The notes under the pieces: generated by a model
Told to the model about the DNA's origin: nothing
The model's database searches: none
The model's input: only the letters and a program-made list of their open reading frames with translations
Shown here: piece by piece, positions 4,393 to 62,150 of the stretch
Layout of the letters: each line of letters begins with the position of its first letter
How positions within the stretch are numbered: position 1 is the stretch's first letter
Position numbers and translations under genes: made by a program
Source: a phage
Reading direction: 5' to 3' (one strand)
Length of the DNA: 64,000 bases
Sequence record: PZ452595.1

Positions 4393-4400
<8 letters not shown>
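4200..4400 (-). CDS. hypothetical protein
   Basis: 66 aa ORF, ATG start. Confidence 0.45.
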
Positions 4401-5808
<1,408 letters not shown>

Positions 5809-5812
<4 letters not shown>

Positions 5813-8860: not shown

Positions 8861-10037
8861 AAAAGTATTTTTTAAAACTCATCATAACTTTATCATCAAC
8901 ATCATTATCAATCTGTGCAACAAGGTAAGATGACAGTTCTACTTCTTGTGGCGCGGATTGAACATTATCAGAATTAAGATATTCACGAATCCAAGGATAC
9001 GGATGTTTAACCGGAGCATCGGTAATTGGGCATGGAAGACCACACTGTTTCATACGAGATACAGTTAAGTAATCAATAAAGCTCCACATGCTATTTGTAT
9101 TTAATCCAGGAACATCGCCGTCTTTAAATAAATGAACTGCCCAATCTTTTTCTTGGCGGTTAACTTCCATGAAAATATCAACTGCTTCTTGTTCACACTC
9201 TTGAGCAATTTTAACCCATTCATCGCCATCAGTGCCAAGTTGAAGTTGACGAATAATATATTGAGTGCCTTTAAGGTGAAGCTGCTCATCACGTGCAATG
9301 AACTTCATAATCTTGGCATTACCTTCCATGATTTCCATGTTTTTATGGAAGTTAAAGGTACATGCGAAAGATACATAAAAACGAATAGCTTCCAATGCGT
9401 TGATTACATGCAAACAGAGGTAAAGAGATTTCATTAGCTCACGCTTCCAATATGTCTCATGCTCAATAGCATCTTCAATAACGTCTTCGTCTGCATTAAT
9501 TTCTTTTTGGTATTCGATATCAGCTTTAGCGTTTTCCCAATAACGAGTTTTAATCAGAACATCATCATAATAACGTCCAATGGATTCAGCACGTTTCATA
9601 ATAGCTTCATCTAATACAATTTCATCAAATACCTTCGATGGATCAGTATAAAGATTTCGCATGATATGTGTATATGAACGGCTGTGAATAGTTTCACTAA
9701 AAGTCCACGTAGCAACCCATGTATCAAGGCTTGGGTCTGAAATTAATGACATAAGTACAGCAGACGGCGCACGACCCTGAATGCTATCCAAAAGTGATTG
9801 ATACTTCAGATTATTAGTAAAAATATTTTGCTGATACTGAGGAAGCTTATTAAACTGTGCAGCATCCATCATCAAGTTTACTTCTTCAGGACGCCAGAAA
9901 AATGATAATTGCTTTTCGGTTAAATCTTCAAAAACTTTATGACGTTGAATATCATAACGCGCAATACCAAGACCTGAACCAAAAAACATAGGTTCTTTTA
10001 AAACATCAACTGGATTTGTATTAAAAACTGTGCTCAT
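8859..10037 (-). CDS. nrdB: ribonucleotide reductase small subunit, uninterrupted
   Basis: 392 aa continuous ORF with ATG start; directly downstream of nrdA. Confidence 0.95.
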   Translation of the reverse strand: MSTVFNTNPVDVLKEPMFFGSGLGIARYDIQRHKVFEDLTEKQLSFFWRPEEVNLMMDAAQFNKLPQYQQNIFTNNLKYQSLLDSIQGRAPSAVLMSLISDPSLDTWVATWTFSETIHSRSYTHIMRNLYTDPSKVFDEIVLDEAIMKRAESIGRYYDDVLIKTRYWENAKADIEYQKEINADEDVIEDAIEHETYWKRELMKSLYLCLHVINALEAIRFYVSFACTFNFHKNMEIMEGNAKIMKFIARDEQLHLKGTQYIIRQLQLGTDGDEWVKIAQECEQEAVDIFMEVNRQEKDWAVHLFKDGDVPGLNTNSMWSFIDYLTVSRMKQCGLPCPITDAPVKHPYPWIREYLNSDNVQSAPQEVELSSYLVAQIDNDVDDKVMMSFKKYF

Positions 10038-10088
10038 AAATTTTCCGCTTAGTTAATAGATAGTGACTCGTCCATGAGTCAAATTATA

Positions 10089-12907: not shown

Positions 12908-13767
12908 TTATACCGCCATCTTTCCTTTAATTGGCGGGTGAGATACATAGTCGTTAAGAACAAAATTATGCGGCTTTGCGAATTGACTCAACCAAAATAC
13001 CTGTGATTCTGTGTCCCATTCATCAAATTCATCTGGGAATTTTAATTGTAATTCGCATAAATCCATAGGTTCACGACGCAAAATTTCTTTACATTGTTCT
13101 ACGTGATTCATATAGATATGAGTATTACCGCCAGAAAATATCAAATCTCCCGGAATAAGATTACATATCTTAGCTACAATATGAACTAACGCAGCATATG
13201 ATGCAATATTAAATGGAAGACCGAGGAAAACATCTACTGATCGTTGATACCACTGAAGGTCAAGGTATCCATTACGAACATTAAATTGATAGAACATATG
13301 ACAAGGTGGTAATGCCATCTGCTTGAGTTCAGCTGGATTCCATGCTGAAACAATTTGACGCCTATCATTTGGCAGTTTTTTAATACGATCAATAACTTCT
13401 ATAATTTGGTCTACACCACCAAAATCACGCCACTGTTTTCCATAAATTGGACCAAGTTCACCGCTATGGTATCCTAAATCTTTTGCTTGATTTTCGTAAT
13501 TTTCATCCCAAACTGTTTTGCCTTGGATTAACGAATCATGTTGAATTAATCGCAAATCATTGACATTTGTGCTTCCCGATAAAAACCATATTAGCTCAGC
13601 AATGCAAGCTTTCCAGGCGAGCTTCTTAGTTGTTACTGCAGGAAAACCTTTAGTTAAATCCCAGCGTAATTTAGTACCGAACAAAGCAATTGTTCCTGTG
13701 CCTGTTCGGTCATCGGTTTCGTAGCCATTTTCCAGGATATCTTTAATTAAAAATTGGTATTGTTTCA

Positions 13768-13768
<1 letters not shown>
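12908..13768 (-). CDS. td: thymidylate synthase, intronless
   Basis: ATG at 13768 gives [26 protein letters not shown]... (286 aa), continuous; active-site region [11 protein letters not shown] present; track start 13780 is a TTG. Confidence 0.95.
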
Positions 13769-14793
<1,025 letters not shown>

Positions 14794-14797
<4 letters not shown>

Positions 14798-15153
14798 ATT
14801 ACCTCCCACTGAAAAGAGCTAGAAGCAAATCCGCTATCTTTAATCATTTTAACTAAAGTTACCATTCCTCTGTTAACTGCTTGTGCGATTTCATCAAAAA
14901 CTTCATCAATATCACCATAAAGATCGCTAAAAAGTTCTAATACGTTCTTCTGAACTTTTAATTTACAGCCAACAAATTCGCCTACAGTAAATTCGTTTCC
15001 GCCAATTCCAGTGTAAAACGTAATTACACCAGTTAATGGTCTTTCACTAGAACATAGGTCGTGTGATAAATTAATATAAGCCGTCCCGGGTGTAGTTTTA
15101 AGTTGGCAACGAATACTTACTCGAGCAATTCCAGCTACACGAATGTCAGACAT
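14794..15153 (-). CDS. hypothetical protein (frd.x block)
   Basis: 119 aa, ATG start, stop overlaps next ORF start (ATGA). Confidence 0.55.
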
Positions 15154-17444: not shown

Positions 17445-17518
17445 TTTTATTTCCTTTTTAATTTAATTAACAGTTGGTGCTATGACGATGTATGACCTCA
17501 TAGCTGGTCAGTAAGATA

Positions 17519-17543
17519 ATTATAATCTATTTATAATAAGCAA
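17519..17543 (-). promoter_or_regulatory. gene 32 regulatory region: middle promoter with overlapping late promoter
   Basis: Minus sense tTGCTTa (MotA-box-like), 12 nt, TATAAT; a late-type TATAAATA lies inside the spacer (17528..17535); AU-rich leader follows. Confidence 0.5.
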
Positions 17544-25530: not shown

Positions 25531-28500
25531 ATGGCTACTTTAAAACAAATACAATTTAAAAGAAGCAAAACTGCAGGAGCACGTCCTGCCGCTTCAGTAT
25601 TAGCCGAAGGTGAATTGGCTATAAACTTAAAAGACCGTGTACTTTTTACTAAAGATGACCAAGGAAATATTATTGATCTGGGTTTTGCTAAAGGCGGTAG
25701 TATTGACGGGAATGTTATTCATACAGGCAATTATAACCAAACTGGCGATTATACTTTAAATGGTGTCTTCACTCAGACTGGTAATTTTAATTTAACTGGT
25801 ATTGCTCGAGTAACTCGCGATATTATTGCCGCTGGGCAGATTATGACTGAAGGCGGAGAACTTATTACAAAAAGTTCAGGTACAGCGCATGTTCGTTTTT
25901 TCGATAACAATAGTCGCGAACGCGGAATCATTTATGCCCCGGCTAATGATGGTTTAACTACACAAGTACTTAATATCAGGGTTCAAGACTACGCCGCTGG
26001 TAGCGAAAGCACTTATGCATTTTCAGGCAGTGGACTATTTACTTCACCTGAAGTATCAGCATGGAAATCTATTTCGTCTCCACAAATTCTGACCGACAAA
26101 GTTATTACAAATGGGAAGAAGACGGGAGATTATGACATTTATTCTATGGCAGACAACGTTCCATTGTCTGAAAGCACTACTGCTATTAATCATCTCCGTG
26201 TTATGCGCAATGCTGTAGGCGCTGGTGTATTCCATGAAGTTAAAGATAATGATGGAATAACTTGGTATACTGGAGATGGCTTAGACACTTATCTTTGGTC
26301 GTTTACCTGGACCGGTGGATTGAAAGCAGGCCATTCTATTTCTGTTGGTACTCCTGGTGGCAATAAAGGATACTCTGAATTAGGGACTGCTTCAATTTCT
26401 CTTGGCGATAATGATACCGGGCTAAAATGGCATCAGGACGGATATTTCTATACAGTAAACAACGGAACAAGAACTTTCATCTATGGTCCAGGAGAAACGC
26501 AAAGCCTTAGAAAAATGGTTATGGCTTATTCTCCAGATGGGCTTCTTATGACAACGCCACCGACAGAAAACTATGCTTTGGCTACTGTTGTTACTTACCA
26601 TGATAATAACGCATACGGTGACGGTCAAACTCTTTTAGGATATTATCAAGGCGGTAACTATCATCATTATTTTCGCGGTAAGGGTACTACAAACATTAAT
26701 ACTCACGGCGGTTTGTTAGTTACTCCTGGTAATATTGACGTTATTGGTGGTTCTGTTAATATCGATGGTAGAAATAATGCTTCTACACTGATGTTTAGAG
26801 GTAACACAACTGGTAGTAGTTCAGTTGATAATATGACAATTTCCGTTTGGGGCAATACGTTTACTAATCCTAGTGTAGGTAATCGTAAAAACGTCATGGA
26901 AATTTCTGATGCAACTAGCTGGATGAGTTATATTCAAAGACTTACAACAGGTGAAGTAGAAATGAACGTTAACGGTTCATTTGAATCATCTGGTGTTACT
27001 GCTGGAAATAGAGGAGTTCACACAACGGGCGAAATTTCATCTGGGGCTGTGAATGCGCTTCGTATTTGGAACGCAGATTATGGAGCTATTTTTAGACGTT
27101 CAGAAGGTAGTCTTCATATTATTCCAACTGCTTATGGTGAAGGTAAACATGGTGATATCGGCCCACTTCGCCCGTTTAGTATGGCTTTAGATACCGGTAA
27201 AGTTACTATTCCAGATTTACAATCAAGTTACAATACGTTCGCAGCGAACGGCTATATTAAATTTGTTGGTCATGGAGCGGGTGCCGGCGGTTATGACATT
27301 CAATATGCTCAAGCGGCTCCTATTTTCCAGGAAATTGATGATGATGCTGTAAGCAAATATTATCCTATTGTTAAACAGAAGTTTTTAAATGGTAAAGCCG
27401 TTTGGTCTTTAGGTACTGAAATTAATTCGGGTACATTCGTTATTCATCATCTGAAAGAAGATGGATCACAGGGCCATACATCAAGATTTAATGCTGATGG
27501 TACAGTTAATTTCCCCGATAACGTTCAGGTCGGCGGCGGTGAAGCTACTATTGCTCGCAATGGTAATATTTTCTCAGATATTTGGAAATCGTTTACTTCT
27601 GCGGGAGACACTACAAATATTCGCGATGCGATAGCTACTCGTGTTGCCAAAGAAGGCGATACGATGACCGGTAGGTTGACTTTATCTGCTGGAAATGATG
27701 CCCTTGTTTTAACTGCGGGCGCTGGCGCTTCATCGCACATCCGTAGTGATGTAGGTGGTACAAATAATTGGTATATAGGCAAAGGCGGCGGCGACAATGG
27801 TCTAGGTTTTTACAGTTACATTACACAAGGCGGTGTATACATAACAAATAACGGCGAAATAGCGCTTTCTCCTCAAGGACAAGGAACATTTAATTTTAAT
27901 AGAGACCGCCTTCATATAAACGGTACACAATGGACTGCGCACCAGGGTGGTGGCTGGGGAAACCAATGGAATCAAGAAGCTCCGATATTTATAGATTTTG
28001 GTAATGTTGGTAATGATAGTTATTATCCTATTATTAAAGGAAAATCTGGTATTACTAATGAAGGATACATATCTGGCGTTGATTTTGGTATGCGACGCAT
28101 TACTAATAACTGGGCGCAAGGTATTATTCGTGTAGGTAACCAGGAAAATGGTTCTGATCCACAAGCTATCTATGAATTTCATCACAATGGAGTTCTGTAT
28201 GTTCCTAACATGGTTAAAACTGGAGCAAGATTATCAGCTGGCGGTGGTGACCCGGTGTGGCAAGGCGCATGCGTTGTTATTGGTGATAATGATACTGGAT
28301 TAGTTCATGGTGGTGATGGACGAATTAATATGGTTGCAAATGGAGTTCATATTGCTTCATGGTCTTCATCTTATCATTCTCATCCAGGCCTTTGGGATTC
28401 AAACGGAGCTTTGTGGACAGAAGTTGGCAAAGCAATTATTTCTCATGGTCATTTAGTTCAGGCGAATGACAGCTATTCAACGTTTGTCCGTGATGTTTAT

Positions 28501-28842
28501 GTCCGCTCTGATATTCGTGTTAAAAAAGACCTCGTTAAATTTGAAAATGCTTCTGAAAAGCTTTCTAAAATTAACGGTTACACTTATATGCAGAAACGTG
28601 GAACTGACGAAGAAGGTAATCAGAAATGGGAACCTAACGCCGGTTTAATTGCTCAAGAAGTTCAAGCTATTTTACCAGAATTAGTTGAAGGCGACCCGGA
28701 TGGTGAAGCTTTACTTCGTTTGAACTATAACGGTGTAATTGGTTTAAATACAGCTGCAATCAATGAGCATACTGCAGAAATTGCGGAACTTAAATCAGAA
28801 ATTGAAGAACTTAAAGCATTAGTTAAATCATTGTTAAAATAA
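25531..28842 (+). CDS. 37: long tail fiber distal subunit gp37 with C-terminal intramolecular chaperone module
   Basis: 1103 aa, AAGAGGA upstream; the C-terminal ~110 aa begin at an S|DIRVKKDL motif and end in a coiled-coil heptad segment. Confidence 0.95.
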
Positions 28843-28847
28843 TAAGA

Positions 28848-28861
28848 GGGGCTTCGGCCCC
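28848..28861 (+). promoter_or_regulatory. intercistronic hairpin between genes 37 and 38
   Basis: GGGGC-UUCG-GCCCC immediately followed by the gene 38 SD GGAGG; no U-run. Confidence 0.4.
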
Positions 28862-28873
28862 TTGGAGGTTTAT

Positions 28874-29650
28874 ATGGCAGTAACAGGACCGTGGGTAGGA
28901 TCGTCTGCAGTAGTTAATACAGGACAAAATTGGATGGGTGGTGCCGCGCAGAGATTGAGAATGGGAATTCCGTTTTGGATGAGTAATATGATAGGTCGAT
29001 CTGTTGAAATAATTCACACGCTTGGAGCAGACCATAACTTCAATGGTCAATGGTTCCGAGATAGATGTTTTGAGGCAGGTAGTGCACCTATAGTGTTTAA
29101 TATCACTGGAGATTTAGTATCATATTCTAAAGATGTTCCTTTATTCTTCATGTATGGAGATACACCCAATGAATATGTTCAGTTGAATATACACGGCGTA
29201 ACGATGTATGGTCGTGGCGGTAATGGCGGTAGCAATAGTCCTGGCTCAGCTGGAGGTCATTGTATTCAAAACGATATTGGTGGGAGACTAAGAATTAATA
29301 ATGGTGGAGCTATTGCAGGCGGCGGTGGCGGCGGTGGCGGCGGATATTATTCTCCTTTTTCACAAATGAGATTGACCTTTGGCGGCGGCGGTGGGCGTCC
29401 GTTTGGTGCACCTGGCGGATCTATTGATATGCAATCAGGAGCGACTGGCGGTACTATTTCTGCACCTGGCTCAGGATCCGTGAATGGTATCTATAATGGT
29501 GGAAACGGTGGTGAAGTAGGTTCCGCGGGAGGTAGATGCAATATTCGCGGTCAAGGATCTGAATATAATGGCGGCGATGCTGGTTATGCCGTCATAGGGT
29601 CCGCTCCAACGTGGATAAATGTTGGAGCAATATATGGTCCAAGAGTATAA
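28874..29650 (+). CDS. 38: gp38 receptor-binding adhesin, T2-type with polyglycine motifs
   Basis: ATG at 28874 with GGAGG 5 nt upstream (258 aa; the track frame adds 4 codons from a TTG); C-terminal half has Gly runs ([20 protein letters not shown]) separating short variable segments. Confidence 0.88.
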
Positions 29651-33191: not shown

Positions 33192-33341
33192 TTACTGCTC
33201 GAACGCGATAACTATCGTGATAACACGTTGAATTCCGAACGCAAGAAGACCTCCTGCTACGGCTGGAACAACGCCTAAACCCGCCAGTAAAATGCTACCG
33301 GATACTAATGCAGCGCTTGTAATACCAATGAATGGACTCAT
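33192..33341 (-). CDS. small membrane protein (motA.1 position), not in ORF track
   Basis: 49 aa hand-translated (MSPFIGITSAALVSGSILLAGLGVVPAVAGG...), hydrophobic; ATG overlaps the gene 52 stop (ATGA). Confidence 0.45.
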   Translation of the reverse strand: MSPFIGITSAALVSGSILLAGLGVVPAVAGGLLAFGIQRVITIVIAFEQ

Positions 33342-34666
33342 TTGATTTCCTCTAAATCTTTAGTGTATTCAGTAACTACATCAGTAGTTTTCCAATATTC
33401 ATTTTCTTCTTTTTTAGCTTTAGCTTCTTCAGCAAGTTTCTTTGCTTCATCGGAAGTCATATGAAAAATATTCATTCCAACTAGTTTATCAACATAAGAA
33501 GAATACATATCGATTTTCGAAAGTTCTTCGGTCAGTTCTTTACGAGTTTTACCCTGCACAACAATTTCACCTGAAATTACTTTCTTAATGAAATGTGCCT
33601 TGGCAAAGGCTAAACGAAAAGCTGACTCAGTTTCTTTAATTTTGTTATCAATTCGTTTTTGGACATAAGTTTTACGAACTTCAACGAAGTCTTTAATTAA
33701 ATCAACCACGTTATCGTAAACTTGTAGTTTTCCTTTCTCATTAATAACCGTAATATTCTGAGAACGACGCTCAATCAACCCGAAGTCTTTCATAATTTTT
33801 GCATGGCGTTCTTCTTCGTTATCGCTCAAAGAGTATTCTTTGCGGAATTTAACTTTGAAGCCAAAACCATGCTCACCACAAGCATCATCCCATGTAATGA
33901 AGCCTTTATCTTCAAGTGGGTCTAAGATTTTACTCACGTAAGTTTCACGATCATACTTATACGGAATCTCAGTGATATGCATTTGAGTTCGTGAAGTAAA
34001 CTTATATGTTCCACGAATTTCATATTGCCCATCAATTTCAACGACTTCACCACGAAATTCTGGGAATTCTACCTTCGGTTTAGTTACTTTCTTTCCTTGA
34101 AGAGCTTGTAGTACAGCTTTCTTGACAGAAGAAACACTATGAGGAAGAATGTAAGTTGCATAACCAGTTGCAATACCGGAAACGCCATTAAGAAGAACAG
34201 TAGGAATAATAGGCAAATAGAAAGCAGGCGGAATGTGTTCTTTATCTTGATGTACTGGAGCATATTCAGTATCTTTATATACGTTATAGAAATTTTTACT
34301 TACACGAGCAAAAATATAACGACTTGCCGCTGCCTTTTGGACAGTACGAGAACCGAAGTTTCCTTGACCATCTAACAGAGGAAAGTTATTATTCCAAGTG
34401 TTAGCCATCAAAGCTCCCGCATCTTGCGCAGAGTTTTCGCCATGGTGATATCCAAGGTCCGCTACACCACCTGCAATAGAAGCGAGTTTGTGAAACTTAT
34501 CTTTATTTCCTCGTGCCAAATCAAGAGCTCGAGCAATAACAAATCGTTGAACTGGCTTAAATCCATCAATCATATTTGGAATGGCACGATTTTCAACCGT
34601 GTACATAGCATAAGCCAATGCTTCATTATCAATGATACTTTTTAAATCGCGATTATTCAGTTGCAT
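33338..34666 (-). CDS. 52: topoisomerase II medium subunit gp52
   Basis: 442 aa, ATG start; GyrA-like N-terminal region; same length as T4 gp52. Confidence 0.95.
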   Translation of the reverse strand: MQLNNRDLKSIIDNEALAYAMYTVENRAIPNMIDGFKPVQRFVIARALDLARGNKDKFHKLASIAGGVADLGYHHGENSAQDAGALMANTWNNNFPLLDGQGNFGSRTVQKAAASRYIFARVSKNFYNVYKDTEYAPVHQDKEHIPPAFYLPIIPTVLLNGVSGIATGYATYILPHSVSSVKKAVLQALQGKKVTKPKVEFPEFRGEVVEIDGQYEIRGTYKFTSRTQMHITEIPYKYDRETYVSKILDPLEDKGFITWDDACGEHGFGFKVKFRKEYSLSDNEEERHAKIMKDFGLIERRSQNITVINEKGKLQVYDNVVDLIKDFVEVRKTYVQKRIDNKIKETESAFRLAFAKAHFIKKVISGEIVVQGKTRKELTEELSKIDMYSSYVDKLVGMNIFHMTSDEAKKLAEEAKAKKEENEYWKTTDVVTEYTKDLEEIK

Positions 34667-37594: not shown

Positions 37595-38533
37595 TTATTT
37601 AAATTGTTCAGTAACGTCTTCAACTACTTCGTATTGGCAGGTACGCATTTTAGCATCGTTGTAATCAATCGGAATTGATACTACATCGCGAGGATGAACT
37701 TTAACTTTTACAACTCGGCTGGTTGAACTGCCAAAGTGACGAATATAAGATTTAGAACACACATGCAGACCACGAGAACAAGTTTGTGTATCATCGTCAT
37801 TCACACGAGTACGTGGCATTTTAACTACTTTACCCGGACTGTTATCAAAGGTATTTGAGTGACAGTCAAAGTAATTGCTACGAACTACTTTCCAAGCATA
37901 GAAGTAACCATCTTCTGTAATTTCAATATCGTTTGCTACCAAGAAATCAAAGAGTCGAGATACCGCTTTTTGGCTTGGGTTTTCCAGCAGATTTTCCAAG
38001 AACGGAAAATAAAATTCAAAGTTTTCGCCTTTTTCCATCGAGTCAAGAATACGATCAACCAAACCAGACCGCAATTCAATATTTTGATAGAACAAGCTTC
38101 CACCTTCAATTCGAACATCGCCGGAAATATATTTTTCAACAGCGCGACGAACATTAATTTTTTGTGCCGCTTCTTCCAACTTATCCGCTACAAGCAGATT
38201 AAGAATTTCCTGGAAGTTTGAATGAGTATTAGGAGTTGCATTATAAGTTACACCGTCAACAGTAATTGAAATGAATTTTTTAGATGCATTCCAAATAATG
38301 TCAGATTTAGCAACTGGAGCAATAACTGCATCGCTATTAACTTTAACTGTAATATCACCGCTAATAGTAACTTTAGGGCGTTTAGCTTCTTCAGCATTTT
38401 TCAAAACACGACGGATTGTGTCAACCGATACACCTTGCCAATCAGCCAATTCCTGTTGGGTGTAATTACCACTTGAATACAGTTTAACAATTTCAGCTTG
38501 TTCGTTTTTGGTCAGGCATTTAATATTGTACAT
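37595..38533 (-). CDS. rIIB: rIIB membrane-associated protein
   Basis: 312 aa, ATG start; same length as T4 rIIB; directly downstream of rIIA. Confidence 0.92.
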   Translation of the reverse strand: MYNIKCLTKNEQAEIVKLYSSGNYTQQELADWQGVSVDTIRRVLKNAEEAKRPKVTISGDITVKVNSDAVIAPVAKSDIIWNASKKFISITVDGVTYNATPNTHSNFQEILNLLVADKLEEAAQKINVRRAVEKYISGDVRIEGGSLFYQNIELRSGLVDRILDSMEKGENFEFYFPFLENLLENPSQKAVSRLFDFLVANDIEITEDGYFYAWKVVRSNYFDCHSNTFDNSPGKVVKMPRTRVNDDDTQTCSRGLHVCSKSYIRHFGSSTSRVVKVKVHPRDVVSIPIDYNDAKMRTCQYEVVEDVTEQFK

Positions 38534-38544: not shown

Positions 38545-40722
38545 TTAGGCCGCAAGGGCCTTCATAGTTTTAGCGATTTGGGAAACTTCATCATCACTTA
38601 AAGAGTTGCGATAACTGATGAAGTCGGAAACAATACGGAATTTCTTGGTAAACTCAGCAACCATTTTATCACTGTTTTTTGAAGCATTATTTGATAATAC
38701 ATCAAAAAGATTAGTTACTGTCCAGATGTCATGACCGATGGTATCTTTTCCACCATTAAAATATACACCCTGTAATGAACTAACCATATTAGCGAGTCGT
38801 GTATATTCTTCAGAAACTTCATCTACACTGAAGTACTTCATCATAAAATCTAACTCAGGATACTTGATAATTTTATCAATATATCGTTTAGCTGAACTTG
38901 AATAACCTACATACTTATCATAATCTACATCATCAAAAGCATCTACATATAAATCACGCAAAGCTTCAAAAATACATTGGCACTGACCGAGTTCTTTTAC
39001 CTTTTTCTGTAAAAGCGGACGAATAACATAAAATTCATTAATGCCAATAAGATTAGCCATACGAATCAAAATATTCATAGATGGATGACAAAGAGATGTA
39101 GTACCATCCATAGAGAAAATATCAGAACGATGCATATACGCTACATAACCAGTAATTTCATCTGCTTCTGACGTAAGTGTAAATAGTTCCTCTTTTTCCC
39201 AGCGCCCGTCTTTAATTTCAAACTTAAATGCTGTAGCAGCTTTAGGACGAGGAGCTTTACTTTTAACTACCTTTGGAATATAGCTTTTAACTAAAGCTTC
39301 AATTTCTGACAAATAATGAATGTTAACTTCATCACTTTCAAACATCGCCATAATATCAGGAAGTAAATCAATCTGCGATTCTACTTCTGGGTTAATAAAC
39401 AGAAGGCGTTCGTTATGATGAATATTTAAAGTGTTATTAAATTCACTATCATCTAACGCATGTGCTAATCCACGGACAATATTAACACGATTTTTAATAT
39501 CATCAATAACGATATTAATTTTTGTTGTATTAATACCAAACAGACGATAGCTTGATGCAACGGCTGAAGTTTCATGGCTTTGCTTAATACGTTTCAGCCG
39601 AGGGTCAAGATTTACTTCATACACAACTCCTGCATTGCATAACTTACTATCAGGTTCAAACATGCTCTGCATCTTTTTATATGACAGATTTTTAGTCGTG
39701 AATTTGACTGAATTACTAATCATATAATCTCGAGCAGAATACCCCATCTTCATCAATTCACGATATGTATGACGAGGAGATGTAGATTCTTTAAATCGTT
39801 TTACATCTTCATTAAATGCTTTCTCACTGAGTTCTTTAACTCGTTCAATAATATTTTTACGAGTACGATCATCCAGTGAAAGAGCCTCGCGAGATGGAGC
39901 AATATCAAGTGAACCCATTGGAAACTTAATGTAATTCACTTCATTGCGAATGCTTAGCCAGTTACGGTCTCTAATAACACCATCGATAGGATAAACAATA
40001 CCGCCGTAGATAGCATACAATCCACCACGATCAGGCCAGTATCTTTCTGGATTTACGCCGTAATAATCATCGAAATCCGGAAAATAATCAATTTCGCGGT
40101 CAAGACCATTAATGATAGCCAAATCTTTGAACGGTCGCATGATATAAGAAACTTCATAAGCAAAGTTTCTAAAGTCTTTTTCTTCAACTGGAACTACGAT
40201 TTCAATACCAGTTTTATCATCTGGACCCATTTCTTTTACGAATGTAGGTTTAATCTGTGGACCATCACCATCCATGTAAGCTACATAACCACGAATTTCA
40301 CCTTTATGATAAGAAGTAATACTAAACGTATCAGTATAACTAAACGGAGATTTAGAACCTAAACCAAATCCGCCAATAAAGTCATTAGATTCAGCTTTAG
40401 ATGAACTGAAGTATGAATTATACAACCCAGGAGAATTATCATCACCTTGAATATCAAAATCACTCATACCCGGACCAAAATCTCGACAAACAAATCGTGG
40501 GTCTAAACGTCCAGGAACTTGTATGATAAATTTCTCTGGATTTCCATTAAGTGCATGAGCATCAATCATGTTAGTAATCAATTCACGGACTACTGCGCGA
40601 ATCTTGTTTGTATATAAATCAGATGACAGAATTTTAAATACTTTAGGAGATGCTGTGATGCTAAATGCTTTTGATTTAGAACCATTGCCAAGAATTGTTT
40701 CTTTTTCAGTGGTGATAATCAT
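38545..40722 (-). CDS. rIIA: rIIA protein
   Basis: 725 aa, ATG start; same length as T4 rIIA; GHKL-ATPase-like N-terminal region. Confidence 0.94.
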
Positions 40723-40732: not shown

Positions 40733-40936
40733 TTAATTCATATTACGCTTAATAACTTCAGCAACTTCTAGTAGTTCATCTTTAGTTGCGGTGTCGGATT
40801 GAATTTTATCTCTAATATCTTTAAAGCGGTTTTTAAATTCTTCGGCTTCTCCCATATCGAAAAAGCGTTGAATGATTCTATATTCTCGATGAACTGCTTT
40901 ATCAAAAAGTTCTAAATTTACTTTATATGATTTCAT
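40733..40936 (-). CDS. hypothetical protein (rIIA.1 position)
   Basis: 67 aa, ATG start; early promoter 40962..40990 upstream. Confidence 0.55.
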
Positions 40937-40990: not shown

Positions 40991-42808
40991 CTATTGGCTC
41001 ATCCATTCTTTACGAAGGTCAGCATTATCTCCCATGAGCATTTCAAAAAGCTCTTTCCAGTTCTCAGGAAGTTTAACAACATCATATACTGGGTTTTGAA
41101 TCATCTCACGATATTCAGATTTTTCCAAAGAGCCAAGTCCTTTAATATAACGGATGCTATGTTTAGGTAAAGCATCTTTAGCACTCTCATATTCAGCGAC
41201 TGTATAAAACCATTCTTGTTTTTTACCGACCTGAGCGATGATTACAGGAGTTTTGACGAAGCGAATTCGTCCTTGCTCAAACAATTCTGGCCAATTACTA
41301 AAAAATCCAAGCAGAGAAGGATAAATGCTTCCTAGACCATCATGGTCAGCATCAGTCATAATAGCAATATTATGATAATTCAAGTTTTCAGCTTTTTCAC
41401 CGAGAACTAATCCAGTGATTGCGCAAATATCAAATAGTTCTTTGTTTTTAAGCATATCTGCATAAGACATACCCCAGCTATTAAGAACTTTACCACGCAA
41501 TGGATAACCACCGTGAAGTTCTTTATCACGAACATCAATAAGATATCCGATAGCAGAATCACCCTCAGTCAAGAAAAGAGTAGTGTCAGCATCTTTACCA
41601 CAAAGATTCGCTTTGATATGTTTATGAACCTTAGCTTTAGAAGCCTTTTTAGCTGCTTTAGTTTCTGCTGCTTTTTCTGCCGCCAATTTACGAGCCAAAG
41701 CAGCTTCAATAATCGGCATTAGAATTGCTTCATTATTTAGAATAGCACGTGAAATCTTTTTAGCATCAAGCTGAATATGACTACGGATTTCACCAAATGG
41801 AGAAGTCAAACGCTCTTTAGTTTGAGAATCAAATCGCATGTTTTTCATATCACGAACAAACATAACGATTGTCAAACATTCTTTTACACGCGCTTTAGTT
41901 ACATCAATTTTGAACTTACGTTTGATTTGTGGAATAAGGTCTTCACAAATATCATCCATAACACAGTCAATGTGATGGCCACCATTCTTAGTGTGAATGT
42001 TATTGACGTATGTTAATTGACGAAAACCATCCGGTGAACGACCAACCGCAATAGAACAATTTTCTTGTTCTTGAACGATAGCATGCTCATCATATTGGCG
42101 TGCATATTTCTTAAAATTGCCCTGAACCTTTTTACCATTAAAGGTAAATTGAATATCAGGATAAACTACTGCAAGTGTCTGGAGACGATCTAGTGTAATG
42201 TCAAGATAAACTTGGGACAGCTCATTAGTTTCAAATGACATAAAATCAGGAATGAAAGTAACACGAGTTCCTTTCCATTTTCCAGGAATATCTTCCCATG
42301 ATTTATTTTCCATGCCATTTGAACAACGAACTACAATATTATTTTGACCATCACCAGTTTCACCGACAAACATCACAGAAAAAATGTTTGTCAAACTAGA
42401 ACCAACACCATTCATACCACCGGTGACGCGTTCTTTATCATCACCGAAGTTACCACCTGCTTTTGGAATAGTCCATGCAGCAACAGGACCAGGAATTTCT
42501 TCACCGGTAGGTGTTTTAACCATCGCTTGTGGAATACCACGACCGTTATCTTCAACTGTTACTTGATTGTTTTTAATAGTAACATTAATTTTATTTGCGA
42601 ATTTAAACTTAGTACGAATACCTTCATCTACTGAGTTATCGATAATTTCATCAATAAGCTTAACAAGACCAGGTACATACTGAACACTTTCCCATTTACC
42701 AAACAGAAAGCGCTCATGCATTTCATTAGCAGAAGAGCCGATGTACATGCCACTGCGCTTTTTGATATGTTCAATATCGCTCAGAATTTTAATTTCATTC
42801 TTAATCAT
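40991..42808 (-). CDS. 39: topoisomerase II large subunit, unsplit (39 + 60 in one frame)
   Basis: ATG at 42808 (605 aa); GHKL ATPase motifs (EIIDNSVDE, GRGIP) and Toprim region (…IAIMTDADHDG…) in one continuous frame; no gene 60 gap. Confidence 0.93.
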   Translation of the reverse strand: MIKNEIKILSDIEHIKKRSGMYIGSSANEMHERFLFGKWESVQYVPGLVKLIDEIIDNSVDEGIRTKFKFANKINVTIKNNQVTVEDNGRGIPQAMVKTPTGEEIPGPVAAWTIPKAGGNFGDDKERVTGGMNGVGSSLTNIFSVMFVGETGDGQNNIVVRCSNGMENKSWEDIPGKWKGTRVTFIPDFMSFETNELSQVYLDITLDRLQTLAVVYPDIQFTFNGKKVQGNFKKYARQYDEHAIVQEQENCSIAVGRSPDGFRQLTYVNNIHTKNGGHHIDCVMDDICEDLIPQIKRKFKIDVTKARVKECLTIVMFVRDMKNMRFDSQTKERLTSPFGEIRSHIQLDAKKISRAILNNEAILMPIIEAALARKLAAEKAAETKAAKKASKAKVHKHIKANLCGKDADTTLFLTEGDSAIGYLIDVRDKELHGGYPLRGKVLNSWGMSYADMLKNKELFDICAITGLVLGEKAENLNYHNIAIMTDADHDGLGSIYPSLLGFFSNWPELFEQGRIRFVKTPVIIAQVGKKQEWFYTVAEYESAKDALPKHSIRYIKGLGSLEKSEYREMIQNPVYDVVKLPENWKELFEMLMGDNADLRKEWMSQ

Positions 42809-42861
42809 CACTTATCCTCGTTTGGTTTCGGGAATATTATACTCCAATAATCATAAAGCTA

Positions 42862-42877
42862 AAGGCCCGAAGGCCTT
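42862..42877 (-). terminator. hairpin, possible weak terminator
   Basis: AAGGCC-UUCG-GGCCUU stem-loop between the lipoprotein ORF and gene 39; only a weak U-run follows. Confidence 0.35.
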
Positions 42878-43138
42878 TTATTTAAAACGGATAGTCGAAT
42901 CCTTAAAGAACAGCCCAGAACATACTGTTCCTTCTACTTTCTGCCCAGTAGGTCCAATAGCACGAAATCCAGTATGCTGGAAATCATTTTCAGAGCAACC
43001 GAACCAATTATATCCAGTGATTTCAATATTAGTAAAACCACTTGAAGATAAAACTTTGGTTGCATTATCAGCATCAGTACATCCTGCTAACGACACTGCT
43101 AATACTAATGCTGCGATAGAACGATTAATATATTTCAT
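42878..43138 (-). CDS. putative lipoprotein (39.1 position)
   Basis: ATG at 43138 (86 aa); signal peptide with lipobox LAGC (MKYINRSIAALVLAVSLAGCTD). Confidence 0.5.
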   Translation of the reverse strand: MKYINRSIAALVLAVSLAGCTDADNATKVLSSSGFTNIEITGYNWFGCSENDFQHTGFRAIGPTGQKVEGTVCSGLFFKDSTIRFK

Positions 43139-43143
43139 AATTT

Positions 43144-43515
43144 TCACTTAAATTTAATGGCTTGAAGAAGACTAATAACTCTCAAGCGACTTCTTTCATC
43201 TTTAACTGTAAAAGAAAGAGGGTCACCAGATTTCATAGTAATAGTACATTCAAAATCAAAATCTTCGGAAACTTCTTTGAAGAAGTCAAATTCTTCATCA
43301 TAAATTAGAACATTACTCTGACAACTATGAAGAATTTTTCCATCATTTCCAGATGCTGTACTAATCATTGTAACATTATGACCTTTCATATCTTCAACGA
43401 TAAATTCACTAGTCAATATTACAGCATTAATAGAACTATTCCTATTACTAGCAGAAAGTAGATATTTCTGTTCTTCACCTTCACGAATGCGATATTTCTT
43501 ACCGATTTTAAACAT
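43144..43515 (-). CDS. hypothetical protein
   Basis: 123 aa, ATG start. Confidence 0.55.
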   Translation of the reverse strand: MFKIGKKYRIREGEEQKYLLSASNRNSSINAVILTSEFIVEDMKGHNVTMISTASGNDGKILHSCQSNVLIYDEEFDFFKEVSEDFDFECTITMKSGDPLSFTVKDERSRLRVISLLQAIKFK

Positions 43516-43517: not shown

Positions 43518-43694
43518 TTACCCTTTAAGTAAGTCGTAAAAACCACCATTCACATGCTTAGGAGCAGAAGGCCGACGAGTAGACAAACGATGACATTTAG
43601 GGCAAACATCATTTTCTCGTTCAGAAATCTTTTTAATTTTTTCATATTCATGCCCACAATCTTCGGATTGGCATTTATAATCATACATTGGCAT
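43518..43694 (-). CDS. zinc-ribbon small protein, not in ORF track
   Basis: 58 aa hand-translated (MPMYDYKCQSEDCGHEYEKIKKISERENDVCPKCHRL...); two CxxC pairs; AAGGA 6 nt upstream of ATG. Confidence 0.45.
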   Translation of the reverse strand: MPMYDYKCQSEDCGHEYEKIKKISERENDVCPKCHRLSTRRPSAPKHVNGGFYDLLKG

Positions 43695-45285: not shown

Positions 45286-45828
45286 TTAATTCAAAATAGC
45301 TACCACTGCACTACGAGGTACTACGCTAAAATCACCTGCATGAACAACGTTCAGAAGTTCAACACCATCTTCAATCCACTGGTCTGTTACCCAACCACAG
45401 ACCGAAATAAATGGGGTCTTGATAGCTACTGCACGAGTCAAAAGGTCAGTAGGATCAACTTCTTGGAAGAGGATAATCTCTGCTTCAAAGACTATAGTTT
45501 TAATTACTTCATCATTATCTAAGCGATGTGCTCGAATCACGTAAGCTTTATTCTTATCATACCAATTACTTTTTGAAAAACTTTTAACCACAAACTCACC
45601 TTCACCAAAAACACTGGTCAATGCTTTATAACCCAAATTTAGTTCAGTAGTTTTAATTTCAGTTTCAACCAGTTTGTAGGTTTTGCCAGTTTCGATGGTC
45701 CGAGCAGTCATAAATGTTTCCTTAATTTCTAATGGTTTAACAAGAGTGCCGTACATGCTTGCTATATCCATATCAAACGGTTTATCTACAGGATTCGGTG
45801 TGTATTCAGGATTATAATTAAATTTCAT
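45286..45828 (-). CDS. hypothetical protein with MotB-like C-terminal domain (motB.1 position)
   Basis: 180 aa; C-terminus GWVTDQWIEDGVELLNVVHAGDFSVVP aligns with MotB AYITDQWVEDGVKLYNAVFLGTYKVIP. Confidence 0.6.
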   Translation of the reverse strand: MKFNYNPEYTPNPVDKPFDMDIASMYGTLVKPLEIKETFMTARTIETGKTYKLVETEIKTTELNLGYKALTSVFGEGEFVVKSFSKSNWYDKNKAYVIRAHRLDNDEVIKTIVFEAEIILFQEVDPTDLLTRAVAIKTPFISVCGWVTDQWIEDGVELLNVVHAGDFSVVPRSAVVAILN

Positions 45829-54020: not shown

Positions 54021-54028
54021 TATTTATA
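54021..54028 (-). promoter_or_regulatory. late promoter for soc
   Basis: Minus sense TATAAATA about 30 nt upstream of the soc ATG. Confidence 0.55.
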
Positions 54029-54073
54029 ATAAATTCTCGCGGCTTTTAAGTCGTCGTTTAAATAAACGAGCTA

Positions 54074-54592
54074 TTAATAGCCTCGATCTTGACGTGCGAA
54101 ATTTTCGGCATTTTTCAGATAATAAAGTTTAAAGATTTCCTCAGCTGACATTCCAAGAGCAATAAATTTATTCATAAAAAAGTGAAATTGGTCAATCAGT
54201 TCAAATTTAATTTCAAGCTGATCTTCAGGAGATAAGTCTTGAATTTTCTTGGATTGCATTTCAGAATAACGTTTCTTCCAAGGTTTCCATACGGCAGAAG
54301 CTTCTTTTTCACCATTACTCATACCACCAAGAGAAGTATATAGCTCGCGAGTTTCATCTGCGATATAATCGTCTTGGTTTCGCAGCCAAGCAAGAACTTC
54401 TCCTGCGGTTTCAAGTGAATCAGGATGACGATTTGTTTCTGGCTTATCATTAGCCAAACGAATCTGTAAAGACCGCTGCATATCAAGCATAACCTGCAAT
54501 GGGTCTTTTTCATCACCGAGAATATCCCAGTATTCATTTTGAGCTTTATCAACACCTTCGATCAAATGAGCGCATTCATTAAAGTGAGCCAT
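54074..54592 (-). CDS. 56: dCTP pyrophosphatase gp56
   Basis: ATG at 54592 gives MAHFNECAHLIEGVDKAQNEYWDILGDE... (172 aa, MazG-like); the track frame has a hydrophobic N-terminal extension. Confidence 0.88.
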   Translation of the reverse strand: MAHFNECAHLIEGVDKAQNEYWDILGDEKDPLQVMLDMQRSLQIRLANDKPETNRHPDSLETAGEVLAWLRNQDDYIADETRELYTSLGGMSNGEKEASAVWKPWKKRYSEMQSKKIQDLSPEDQLEIKFELIDQFHFFMNKFIALGMSAEEIFKLYYLKNAENFARQDRGY

Positions 54593-54626
54593 TATTTTTC
54601 CTTTCAATTCATGGGTTAGTAGATTA

Positions 54627-54650
54627 ATTATACAATAAATATATAAAGCA
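54627..54650 (-). promoter_or_regulatory. MotA-dependent middle promoter for gene 56
   Basis: Minus sense tTGCTTtA (MotA box), 11-nt spacer, TATAAT. Confidence 0.55.
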
Positions 54651-54663
54651 ATAAGGAGGACAT

Positions 54664-54864
54664 ATGGTACAAAAATTAATGGCACTTGTTGATGCCATAA
54701 AAGGTAATAAGAAACGTATAGCTTTTACTATTTCTGCTATGGTAGGAATTTTACTCTGGAACTTTATTCTATCACCTGTTGCGATTGCACATGGTATTAA
54801 TATTCCAGTAGTTACTCTTGATACATTCGTAGATTTAGCATTTGCTTTAGTTGGGTTAATTTAA
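54664..54864 (+). CDS. small two-helix membrane protein, divergent from gene 56
   Basis: 66 aa plus-strand ORF (MVQKLMALVDAIKGNKKRIAFTISAMVGILLWNFIL...); AAGGAGGA 5 nt upstream of ATG; stop overlaps the gene 61 stop convergently. Confidence 0.4.
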   Translation: MVQKLMALVDAIKGNKKRIAFTISAMVGILLWNFILSPVAIAHGINIPVVTLDTFVDLAFALVGLI

Positions 54865-55889
54865 ATCTTGGCATATTTAGATAGCCGCATTTTAGCCATC
54901 AACCCCTGGGCAATATTATTTTTCATATATTCCATAATTTGTTCAGTGGTTGCACCTTCCTTTCTAATCATATCATTAACATCTTTTGATTTCCAGGGAG
55001 ATTTATCCCAAAACATAACCCTTTCTCCTGCATCAACTAATTTAGTCATTCGCTTAATAGTGTCAGGATGACGAGGTTCATTATCTAAAACCCACACACG
55101 TCTATCTTTAAATGGAACAACTTCTAGGTCTAATTGACCACCCGTAATAGCTATACCATTTTCAATAAAAAGTGAATCTATAGGTCCTTCTAGAACATAT
55201 ACATCACCATCTTTAACTCGTTCTACTCCATAGATTTTTGTTGCCTCAGGATAAGCTTTGATGGTGATATATTTTTGAGGAGCATCTTTCTTTAATGCAC
55301 GTCCTTGAAAAGACTCAGCTTTTCCATTAGCATTATAAATTGGAATAACAAGACGAGGCTCAGAAATTTCCTTTTTATATGTTCCCGGTGCTATACTATT
55401 AACTAATTTAGGCCATTCGGTTGTAAACCAAAGATATTTCCATTTATCCTTTGGAATACAACGAGCTTTTACGTATTTTATAATTGGATGGTCTTCCGCC
55501 AGTTTATCTAATCTAACACATGACGGAAGAGATTTAATTATTTTCTTTTCAGGTTGTTTAGGAAGTTCTTTAAGTTTTTCTACTGGACGGCTTTTACCTT
55601 TTTCTTTTCTTATTTCAAAGATATACTCACGATATAAATCAGGTTCAAACTCCTTTAAATATATTCCGATTGGTGCATGATAGTTACAGTTATAACAATG
55701 AATATTTCCTTCATTATTATCACCATAATACCATCCACGAGCTTTATTTTGGTCGGTTTTTGAATCTCCACAAACAGGGCATCTAAACCGTAATTTAAAA
55801 GTTGAACTATTATTTACTTGTGTGAATTTAGGTAAATGGGCTAATGCACGGTATGCAAACTCATTATCAATCCAAGGTATTGATGACAT
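54861..55889 (-). CDS. 61: DNA primase gp61
   Basis: 342 aa; N-terminal zinc ribbon CPVCGDSK…CYNC and Toprim region; same length as T4 gp61. Confidence 0.95.
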   Translation of the reverse strand: MSSIPWIDNEFAYRALAHLPKFTQVNNSSTFKLRFRCPVCGDSKTDQNKARGWYYGDNNEGNIHCYNCNYHAPIGIYLKEFEPDLYREYIFEIRKEKGKSRPVEKLKELPKQPEKKIIKSLPSCVRLDKLAEDHPIIKYVKARCIPKDKWKYLWFTTEWPKLVNSIAPGTYKKEISEPRLVIPIYNANGKAESFQGRALKKDAPQKYITIKAYPEATKIYGVERVKDGDVYVLEGPIDSLFIENGIAITGGQLDLEVVPFKDRRVWVLDNEPRHPDTIKRMTKLVDAGERVMFWDKSPWKSKDVNDMIRKEGATTEQIMEYMKNNIAQGLMAKMRLSKYAKI

Positions 55890-59319: not shown

Positions 59320-60493
59320 TAAATTCTTCCATATCACTTAACTGATCTAGATCAGTTTCTAAATCAGCTGCTGATTTACTTTTACTTTCTGGAGATTTAA
59401 ATTTTTCAACCTTTGAGTTAATCAATTCATCAACTTCAGCTTCAACAATTTCATTACTATCAATAGCACCTAACTGATAAGCACGTTTAATAGCATCTCG
59501 GAATGGTTGATGCTTAAATAAAGGACCCCAGAATGTAGTGCAGTTGGTATCTTTTGCACGCCAAGATTTTTCTTCGCGAATCATCTCGCCGGTTTCTTCG
59601 TCAAGAAATTCACGAGCATACCAACCGTTCTTAGGTTTTACCACGAATCCTAATTCTAGAGCCATATCTAACAATCCAGAATAAGGATCGATACCACCGT
59701 CAAATTTAACATCAATAAAGAATTTACTTTTTTCTTTAACGGTACGAGATTTTTCTACATTTAGAACAAATTGATACCCCTGAAGATCAGAACCATCTTT
59801 AATCTGGCGTTTACCGATAATGAATACAGTATCAGCCGAATACATTACGCCTGTACCACCTGTCATCACGGTTTTACTAAACATTTCAATTGTTTCAATT
59901 GTATGGTTAACCGCAACACATGGAATATTTTTAATGCTAAAATAAGGAGTAACAATACGGAATAATGACTTCAGTGATTTAGCACGAGTCATATCTGCCA
60001 CAGATTTTTCATTCAAGGCATCTTCCGTTTCTTTCTTAGAAGCCATATTACCGATTGAGTCGATGAATACAATAACCTTTTCACCACGCTCAATAGCTTC
60101 AAGCTGATTCACCATATCAATTTTCAGCTGTTCAACTGACTGAATTGGCGTATGAATTACTCGTTCCGGGTCAACTCCCATGGAACGTAAATAAGCTGGA
60201 GTAATACCAAATTCGCTATCATAGAATAGACAAACCGCGTCAGGATATTTGTTCAAATATGCCGCAACCATAGTCAAAGACATATTTGATTTAAAGTGTT
60301 TAGAAGGCCCTGCGAAAATAGTTAAACCAGACTGCATACCACCATCAATCGCACCAGAAATAGCGATATTAAGCATTGGGATTTTTGTACGGATTACATC
60401 CTTTTCATTAAAGAATTTAGATGTAGTCAGTTCAGCAGTCATTTTAGAAGTGGAAGCTTTAATCAAACGGGATTTTAAATCTGCAATAGACAT
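59312..60493 (-). CDS. uvsX: UvsX recombinase (RecA-like)
   Basis: 393 aa; Walker A GPSKHFKS; acidic C-terminal tail; length and position match T4 UvsX. Confidence 0.94.
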   Translation of the reverse strand: MSIADLKSRLIKASTSKMTAELTTSKFFNEKDVIRTKIPMLNIAISGAIDGGMQSGLTIFAGPSKHFKSNMSLTMVAAYLNKYPDAVCLFYDSEFGITPAYLRSMGVDPERVIHTPIQSVEQLKIDMVNQLEAIERGEKVIVFIDSIGNMASKKETEDALNEKSVADMTRAKSLKSLFRIVTPYFSIKNIPCVAVNHTIETIEMFSKTVMTGGTGVMYSADTVFIIGKRQIKDGSDLQGYQFVLNVEKSRTVKEKSKFFIDVKFDGGIDPYSGLLDMALELGFVVKPKNGWYAREFLDEETGEMIREEKSWRAKDTNCTTFWGPLFKHQPFRDAIKRAYQLGAIDSNEIVEAEVDELINSKVEKFKSPESKSKSAADLETDLDQLSDMEEFNE

Positions 60494-60570
60494 TCATTTT
60501 TTCCATAGGCATCATTATATTTTCCTCACTGGTTAAAGATAGAGTAATTATAACACAATAAATTTAGGCA

Positions 60571-61413
60571 TTAATCAACTGCTATTGGATGAATAGCATT
60601 AAACTTATGAAATGCTTCTGATTTTTCTTTACGCGAAACACACATGCGAAGAACCTTTAATGGCTCATCTTCTTCACCCAACGATTTTCGTTTTTCAATA
60701 TTAGAAGTTTTCCAACGAGCTTGTTCTGGAAACTCTCTATTGATTTGCTCAAGCGCTCTATTATGTTTAGAATTACTACGAATTGAACTGCACCCGCCAG
60801 GAGCTTGTGCTTTTCCAGATACAACCAGATATTTGAACAAGGCCAAATGCGGATAACCTTGATTAATTAAATTGAGAAATGCATACATATCTTCGCATAA
60901 ATCAATTTTTCCATACCCAATTTGTTCTGTCGTAAGTTTTCCGAGGTCATACCATGTATTCGTGAATCCATATGAATTTTCACGATAATTACCCCAAGAT
61001 GAAGTAATTTTAAAAATAGGTAGACGAGCATGGCCATGATAATACCCGCAATCCATGGCATCTTCAACGTATTGAATCAATTCATAGAACTGTTCACGAG
61101 TTAATTGATTAACTTTATCTACGCAGCGACGATCATCTCTCTTTCGCATTGAACTCATACGAATAGTAGTATCATCGTCAATCATCCAGATTCGTTGACC
61201 TGCATACATATCAGTAATAGCTTTACGAGTACCGGCAATTCCATTTACATCATCAGGAATAGTTATAATTTTAGCTCTAGACCCATAGGCATCACAATAA
61301 GCTTTTTCTTCGTGTTCACGCACTACAATATGCGGTTCATAATCAGTCGGAAACATATCAAGGGCAGAAACTGCCCCAACACGCTGATAACTTGGAATTA
61401 CGAATTGAATCAT
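60571..61413 (-). CDS. HMC-DNA glycosyltransferase, GT-A type (candidate beta-alpha-glucosyltransferase)
   Basis: ATG at 61413 overlapping the gene 42 stop (ATGA), 280 aa; DxD motif in WMIDDDTT; sits at the uvsX-42 locus but is shorter than T4 beta-gt. Confidence 0.65.
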   Translation of the reverse strand: MIQFVIPSYQRVGAVSALDMFPTDYEPHIVVREHEEKAYCDAYGSRAKIITIPDDVNGIAGTRKAITDMYAGQRIWMIDDDTTIRMSSMRKRDDRRCVDKVNQLTREQFYELIQYVEDAMDCGYYHGHARLPIFKITSSWGNYRENSYGFTNTWYDLGKLTTEQIGYGKIDLCEDMYAFLNLINQGYPHLALFKYLVVSGKAQAPGGCSSIRSNSKHNRALEQINREFPEQARWKTSNIEKRKSLGEEDEPLKVLRMCVSRKEKSEAFHKFNAIHPIAVD

Positions 61414-62150
61414 TTCCACTCACCTTTATAGTCTTTTTTCACAATATGAGTTTCGCCAGTATTCCACCAATGATCAACCAAGTAAAAATGACGAGAATAT
61501 ACATGAAGACTTCCAACATTCCATATAATAGAACCTGCTTTATACTGACGAGTTGAATCGCCTGCATTCAAATCAGATACTAATTTATCTAATACGTATT
61601 TTTGCCATGCATAATCATTACGGAATCCGAAGACTACGTCATTTGAGCGCATGTTAACAACTGCATTGATTTTCTTGTCACGAATCAGGTATTGTACTGT
61701 ATTCGTACACATGAAATCTGACATACCATCTTTATTGTAGTCAAATTGCATAGATGGACGAGTATAAATCATGATACCACGTCGAGAATCAGGATTTTGA
61801 CCAAGTTCAGCTAAACACATATCATACTGAGCATAATTATCTTCTGACCAAATAGCCCAACCATAATTCGAGTTAATTTCACCTTTAGAAGATGCTACTT
61901 GTTGCCAAATCTTCGGTGTTTCACCCGGAATATCTTTAACGAACAAGCTCTTAGATTTATACCATTCAAGTTCACGCTGGATGTATTCATCATTAAGAGC
62001 GCCAAAAATAAACGGTTCATCTGCTACAAATGATGCGCCAATAATTTCAATAGTTTTAACGCCAGTTTTATCAACTACGAAATCTTTTTCTTTTAATGCA
62101 AGCCCCAAATGAAGACGGATTTCTTCAACTGTCATAGAGTCACTAATCAT
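61410..62150 (-). CDS. 42: dCMP hydroxymethylase gp42
   Basis: 246 aa, ATG start; thymidylate-synthase-like fold signature; same length as T4 gp42. Confidence 0.94.
   Translation of the reverse strand: MISDSMTVEEIRLHLGLALKEKDFVVDKTGVKTIEIIGASFVADEPFIFGALNDEYIQRELEWYKSKSLFVKDIPGETPKIWQQVASSKGEINSNYGWAIWSEDNYAQYDMCLAELGQNPDSRRGIMIYTRPSMQFDYNKDGMSDFMCTNTVQYLIRDKKINAVVNMRSNDVVFGFRNDYAWQKYVLDKLVSDLNAGDSTRQYKAGSIIWNVGSLHVYSRHFYLVDHWWNTGETHIVKKDYKGEWK

Follow-up and report, generated by a model that had tools for sequence, protein, structure and literature searches.

Is the large subunit of the phage type II topoisomerase encoded at this locus in one piece, and if so, is that the original state of the gene or a restored one? 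The question arises from phage T4, in which the subunit is divided between gene 39 and gene 60 and a 50-nt bypass has to be crossed during translation, as the preliminary description of this DNA noted and as the T4 record annotates (gene 39, of 516 aa, at 3778-5328; the mobA pseudogene with 60.1; gene 60 joined over 2458-2990, in which 2803-2852 is marked as a 50-nt “translational bypass”). For the 64,000-nt stretch of phage DNA analyzed here (the window), the same description proposed a single 605-aa frame at 40991-42808. This ORF is almost certainly the uninterrupted gene 39 of a Tequatrovirus (T-even phage), encoding the 68-kDa GyrB-like large subunit of a type IIA topoisomerase, and the lack of the MobA homing-endonuclease cassette in this genome explains why the gene is undivided.

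Reading frame, product and surroundings of gene 39

The features on which the reading of the gene and its immediate context depends are as follows.

43518-43694: 39.2-like zinc ribbon, upstream of gene 39
43144-43515, minus strand: RB32ORF005c-like ORF, upstream of gene 39
42878-43147: 39.1 homologue, upstream of gene 39
42861..42878, minus strand: terminator-like hairpin, AAAGGCC-TTCG-GGCCTTT (sequence reading; putative)
42836..42860, minus strand: promoter-like element, AGCTTTA, 12-nt spacer and TATAAT (sequence reading)
42815..42819, minus strand: Shine-Dalgarno GAGGA (sequence reading; putative role)
40991..42808, minus strand: gene 39 (“60plus39”), topoisomerase II large subunit CDS, 605 codons plus TAG stop (ORF list, Pfam, PHROG 543)
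40733-40936: rIIA.1, downstream of gene 39
38545-40722: rIIA, downstream of gene 39
37595-38533: rIIB, downstream of gene 39

The ORF list of the window gives a minus-strand ORF at 40991..42811 with 606 aa counted from a GTG, the second codon of which is an ATG (42808-42806) that yields a product of 605 aa. Since GAGGA lies 6 nt from the ATG and only 3 nt from the GTG, the ATG was taken over the GTG and is likely the start codon of the gene. The N-terminus that begins there, MIKNEIK, is common to the window gene and to gp39 of T4, T2 and T6. From this ATG the frame at 40991-42808 reads through without an internal stop to the TAG at 40993-40991, and it aligns free of indels with the genes of four relatives, so that the single frame proposed in the preliminary description stands. 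The base composition of the DNA gives a probability of ~4e-21 per position for 606 sense codons in a row, and the open frame is therefore not a product of chance. A mass of 68.3 kDa is computed for gp39 from its sequence, which agrees with the earlier estimate of ~68 kDa.

The genes on either side of gene 39 form the canonical T-even arrangement. The expression signals listed above would serve gene 39 as far as they can be judged by reading the sequence. The hairpin falls directly after the stop of the gene 39.1 homologue and 5' of the promoter-like element, whose geometry resembles that of a T4 middle (MotA-dependent) promoter by what we take to be the MotA-box consensus, making it a putative promoter of this class. 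Around gene 39, the element at 42836..42860 went uncalled in a sigma-70 consensus scan, and so did the hairpin in a terminator scan because of its weak T-run; promoter and terminator scanning over the same surroundings gave a count of 9 vs. 10.1 expected from shuffled sequence. The hairpin also contains a 10-nt match, GCCTTCGGGC (42874-42865), to the stem-loop at the take-off site of the gene 60 bypass in T4. With an E-value of 1.9 this match is at chance level and was dismissed as a remnant of a bypass; it probably reflects the frequency of UUCG hairpins in T-even transcripts.

Domain architecture and proposed mechanism

The ATPase and Toprim regions had been described as lying in one ORF, and both are recovered on the 605-aa frame by Pfam (HATPase_c, TOPRIM_C) and by their motifs. 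All three Pfam domains found in gp39 score above their gathering cutoffs, namely HATPase_c at aa 47-149 (38.3 bits vs. 26.4), DNA_gyraseB at aa 250-384 (51.1 vs. 27) and TOPRIM_C at aa 519-604 (30.7 vs. 29), and PHROG 543, “DNA topoisomerase II large subunit”, matches the protein with E=2e-295. The regions, their motifs and the partner gene are listed here.

42362..42670, minus strand: GHKL ATPase region, aa 47-149 (Pfam HATPase_c and motif positions)
gp39 residues 54-62: N-box, EIIDNSVDE
gp39 residues 87-93: G1 box, DNGRGIP
gp39 residues 130-138: G2 box, GGMNGVGSS
41657..42061, minus strand: transducer (DNA_gyraseB) domain, aa 250-384 (Pfam PF00204)
gp39 residues 327-334: QTK loop, DSQTKERL
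41336..41572, minus strand: TOPRIM catalytic core, LTEGDSA through TDADHDG (motif positions, conservation, structure alignments)
gp39 residues 413-419: TOPRIM Glu motif, LTEGDSA (E415)
gp39 residues 485-491: TOPRIM acidic cluster, TDADHDG (D486, D488, D490)
33338..34666, minus strand: gene 52, topoisomerase II medium (GyrA-like, DNA-cleavage) subunit, 442 aa (Pfam DNA_topoisoIV, E=9e-77)

These are the features that mark a B-type subunit: a GHKL fold with N-box, G1 (DxGxG) and G2 (GxxGxG), a transducer with the QTK loop lysine, a TOPRIM domain with the conserved Glu and the DxDxD cluster, and a GyrA-like partner (gp52) encoded in the same genome by a gene 52 that is collinear with that of T4. 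In a diverse alignment (A1), GHKL residues E54, N58, D87, G89, G91, G131 and G136 are nearly invariant, as are Q329, T330 and K331 of the QTK loop, whose lysine contacts the gamma-phosphate of ATP. The TOPRIM motifs are conserved in A1 as well, and the TOPRIM core of gp39 aligns with the TOPRIM regions of topoisomerase II, ParE and GyrB structures. The order GHKL, transducer, TOPRIM is that of bacterial GyrB/ParE and of the N-terminal half of eukaryotic topoisomerase II, and human TOP2A and TOP2B, yeast Top2 and ParE all align with window gp39 over its full length (E 1e-47 to 1e-59), while the insertion specific to GyrB is absent. The architecture of the phage enzyme has been described as closer to that of eukaryotic topoisomerase II, yet it is built from two polypeptides (PMC11461880).

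By its 99.7% identity to the assayed gp39 of T6 (PMC11461880), window gp39 would be expected to take part in ATP-dependent strand passage. In the proposed mechanism two gp39 and two gp52 would form an A2B2 enzyme; ATP would dimerize the GHKL domains so that a DNA duplex is captured; the TOPRIM acidic residues E415, D486, D488 and D490 would hold the Mg2+ with which the gp52 tyrosine cleaves DNA; and the captured duplex would move through the break, relaxing supercoils. These A2B2 strand-passage steps have been described structurally for T6, whose gp39 has the identity to window gp39 given above (PMC11461880), and the mechanism, while established for the family, is extended to the window allele by analogy.

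The T4 split, the unsplit relatives and the rest of the window

The alignment to T4 gp39 and gp60 that had been suggested as a check divides the window gene into two well-conserved blocks, nt 1-1419 against gene 39 and nt 1483-1818 against gene 60, separated by a short divergent stretch.

Window gene nt 1-1419: T4 counterpart gene 39, 96.9% identity
Window gene nt 1420-1482 (codons 474-494): T4 counterpart the cassette-borne copy in gene 60, 61.9% identity
Window gene nt 1483-1818: T4 counterpart the 3' part of gene 60, 98.2% identity
41327..41389, minus strand: codons 474-494, cassette-free “parental” stretch with the MobA target (identity drop vs. T4, match to T2)
41333..41338, minus strand: Gly491-Leu492 (GGT CTA), the point of the T4 bypass gap, gapless here (junction alignment)

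The split region measures 1117 nt in T4 vs. 64 in the window, and the window does not differ from T2 anywhere in the 63 nt that the T4 cassette replaces. The T4 sequence at the bypass point is GAT GGA [TAG...50 nt...GGA] TTA GGT, with the 50-nt gap following the GGA of Gly46 of gene 60, whereas the window reads GAT GGT CTA GGA AGC across D490-S494, gapless and without a GGA take-off codon. The elements of a T4-type split and bypass (a GGA take-off codon plus stop, a 50-nt gap and a GGA landing site) are thus missing from the window gene. The peptide AENLNYHNIAIMTDADHDGLGSIYPSLLGFFSNWPELFEQGR of window gp39 runs across the split point as well as the bypass point.

The T4 and window proteins are the same enzyme, with the same catalytic motifs, and differ around the split. 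T4 gp39 has a 43-aa C-terminal extension and T4 gp60 an N-terminal extension of about 30 aa, and window gp39 has neither; aligned with the artificial fusion of T4 gp39 and gp60 (8YO3 chain C), it falls into blocks 1-473 and 472-605, which are separated by ~70 extra T4 residues. The mobA pseudogene and 60.1 of T4 are likewise missing from the window, as is homR, the diverged copy of codons 474-494 that T4 carries. Four T4 queries searched by tblastn against the window (the mobA fragment, gp60.1 and the extensions at the gp39 C-terminus and the gp60 N-terminus) gave no matches, and blastn with the T4 50-nt gap gave only chance matches of 9-13 nt. With nothing beyond chance in these searches, hidden recoding or a cassette remnant in the window was rejected, and the statement that this gene has no gene 60 split or bypass is borne out by the gapless D490-S494 junction together with the lack of cassette matches. 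What the locus holds corresponds to the “parental” 60plus39 allele, that is, a continuous ORF of ~605 codons with no MobA ORF, no terminal extensions and no coding gap.

The breakpoints between the window and T4 are those published for the MobA element, with the 5' end placed at nt 1399-1419 and the 3' end immediately behind D490/G491 (RB14 numbering), or 9 nt beyond that point in the T4 clade (bioRxiv 10.1101/2022.08.31.505936). The element is reported to bring its own diverged “homR” copy of the stretch that it deletes (Manning and Atkins, bioRxiv 10.1101/2022.08.31.505936), and for T2 nicking and invasion by MobA have been reported at a site inside the replaced region (cited literature, including bioRxiv 10.1101/2022.08.31.505936). 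In T4 and about 40 close relatives the cassette was inserted between codon 473 and codon 494, splitting the gene into 39 and 60 and adding the 50-nt bypass gap.

The unsplit relatives agree with the window gene in length and register. T2, T6, RB14 and RB32 each have a gene of 1818 nt at the same genomic position that aligns without indels to the window gene, and the attribution of a T2/T6-type arrangement is confirmed by the single ORFs of this length in the T2 and T6 records.

AP018813, 2447-4264: T2 single ORF, 1818 nt
MH550421, 2447-4264: T6 single ORF, 1818 nt

The gp60plus39 proteins of RB14 and RB32 (ACP30647.1, ABI94827.1) equal window gp39 at 605/605 residues; their genes are 98.1% and 97.2% identical to the window gene in nucleotides, with 34 and 51 differences, respectively, that are exclusively synonymous and no amino-acid differences. 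The two phages also share the neighbors of the window gene, with 39.1 and the RB32ORF005c-like ORF upstream and rIIA.1 and rIIA downstream. The T6 gene (97.6% nucleotide identity) shares 603/605 residues (99.7%), its gp39 having T and H where window gp39 has D173 and Q526, both of which are the T4 residues. The T2 gene (96.75%) shares 604/605, the one difference being at position 70, with F in the window and L in T2. Window gp39 aligns without gaps over 1-605 to 8YLU chain C, which is T6 gp39 (PMC11461880); this one-piece subunit has been solved by cryo-EM (PDB 8YLU, 8YO1, 8YO5, 8YOD, 8YON, 9IMJ). Published assays demonstrate that the T6 enzyme with gp52 relaxes DNA (PMC11461880), and the number of topoisomerase II subunits is given as two in T2 and T6 and three in T4 (Nat Commun 2024, PMC11461880).

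Several differences from T4 were seen elsewhere in the window. Alignment to the corresponding T4 interval shows all seven T4 homing-endonuclease-associated insertions to be missing, and besides the mobA cassette these are the nrdB intron/I-TevIII, nrdB.1 with mobE, the td intron/I-TevI, segG, segF and segA, the window sites of the six being 9361-9364, 10037-10093, 13219-13220, 17507-17543, 54028-54074 and 60481-61428. The ORFs of td (12908-13780) and nrdB (8859-10037) are uninterrupted. The absence of all seven insertions fits T4 being unusually rich in homing elements. A scan of the whole window at Rfam gathering thresholds returned 0 families and no group I intron, ARAGORN found 0 tRNAs in the window, and the presence of another homing endonuclease among window-specific ORFs was rejected, as Pfam and PHROG scans of these gave no HNH or GIY-YIG domain. 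Five small minus-strand ORFs (3329-3859, 5492-5812, 14794-15153, 43144-43515 and 45286-45828) are absent from the matching T4 positions; they match PHROGs of unknown function, and none contains a nuclease domain. Among them, 14794-15153 is a DUF7247 protein, the C-terminus of 45286-45828 is MotB-like, and 43144-43515 and 3329-3859 have weak mutual similarity at the PHROG-family level (phrog_622, phrog_3710), which extends to goF-like proteins.

No dam gene lies in the interval 54685-54861 that separates gene 56 (54074-54685) from gene 61 (54861-55889), and T4 Dam as a tblastn query found nothing in the window. This dam-less layout is common, with most of the stretch present in 348 records and Shigella phage JK38 99.9% identical; gene 56 of the window is only about 78% identical to T4 gene 56. 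At 60571-61413 on the minus strand, a 280-aa beta-glucosyl-HMC-alpha-glucosyltransferase (PHROG 842, E=3e-88; Pfam TAGT), which we take to be the DNA glucosylation enzyme of the T2/T6 type, replaces segA and the beta-glucosyltransferase (b-gt) of T4. The distal tail-fiber region (25531-29650, plus strand) diverges from T4 as well: gp37 has 1103 aa with T4 homology ending after about 25697, and gp38 (28874-29650, plus strand, 258 aa from ATG) is an adhesin of the T2 type (Pfam GP38 and Gp38_N) and not an assembly chaperone of the T4 type. The gp38 adhesin and the beta-glucosyl-HMC-alpha-glucosyltransferase in place of T4 b-gt are T2/T6-type features of this phage. In nucleotide comparisons with the phage collection, identity peaks at 98.3% for a 2.5-kb stretch and at about 96% for 25 kb; going by sequence, the window phage is a mosaic Tequatrovirus that is identical to no record in that collection.

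Ancestral state, rival histories and significance

To place the gene among its relatives we consider how the one-piece and split forms are distributed. A 2.5-kb query across the gene matched 565 phage records, 522 of which cover at least 80% of the query in one place, while the T4 insert (mobA region and bypass) occurs in only 43 records, comprising T4 isolates, RB55, RB59, HY01 and similar phages. At the protein level, tblastn with gp39 found at least 80% coverage in one place in 2020 of the 2210 matching phage records; in the sampled rows a cassette-bearing phage shows as three joined pieces. Outside the close relatives, six genes were fetched from other Straboviridae genera and from Ackermannviridae (Mosigvirus mar005P1, Acinetobacter Ac42, Aeromonas avDM1, Vibrio PVA8, Klebsiella Miro and, for the latter family, Kuttervirus maane). 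All six have one collinear ORF across residues 466-495, and that of Ac42 is itself annotated “60plus39”. Because the ORF is single in the six outgroups, the one-piece gene 39 is read as ancestral, and outgroup comparison supports the T4 split as the derived state. The ancestral arrangement suggested in the preliminary description is in line with this comparison and with the view already in print (Manning and Atkins, bioRxiv 10.1101/2022.08.31.505936).

An ancestral gene form does not in itself fix the history of this particular allele, since a clean swap by a naive allele leaves no trace in the sequence and a never-invaded allele therefore looks the same as a restored one. The MobA/bypass cassette could have been present in an ancestor of the window phage and later removed cleanly, for instance if that ancestor recombined with a co-infecting phage that had no cassette. 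The mosaic nature of T-even genomes lends this history some plausibility, as segments of the window are 96-99.9% identical to different phages, and “hit and run” cases have been reported in clades of phages infecting Aeromonas and Campylobacter (Manning and Atkins, bioRxiv 10.1101/2022.08.31.505936). The published hit-and-run cases, however, retain cassette-derived C- and N-terminal extensions of which the window has none, the replaced 63-nt stretch equals that of T2 and is 62% identical to T4, making it the parental version and not homR, and unsplit genes outnumber split ones by about 12 to 1 among close relatives. On balance we consider such a secondary restoration very improbable; if it were true, the locus would be a natural example of the complete reversal of a homing event. 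An artefact of assembly or annotation, such as a collapsed or chimeric assembly that dropped a real insertion, has no observation in its favor and is scarcely credible, given that length and register exactly match the independently sequenced T2, T6, RB14 and RB32 genes and hundreds of further records, and that the window-T4 alignment has uniform flank identity and no junction anomalies.

The preferred reading, a gene 39 without the cassette in its ancestral form, is contradicted by none of the data and is not new. The unsplit gene is the common and already annotated state, described in T2, T6, RB14, RB32 and most relatives; it is annotated in one piece in hundreds of genomes, and its product has been structurally solved for T6. 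The value of this locus is as a reference, with an intact MobA target that is identical to that of T2. Because the 63-nt target is T2's, the window phage should accept MobA homing and would thus be a ready recipient in a mixed infection. The locus also confirms the three-subunit enzyme of T4 and its translational bypass as derived oddities that stem from a mobile element.
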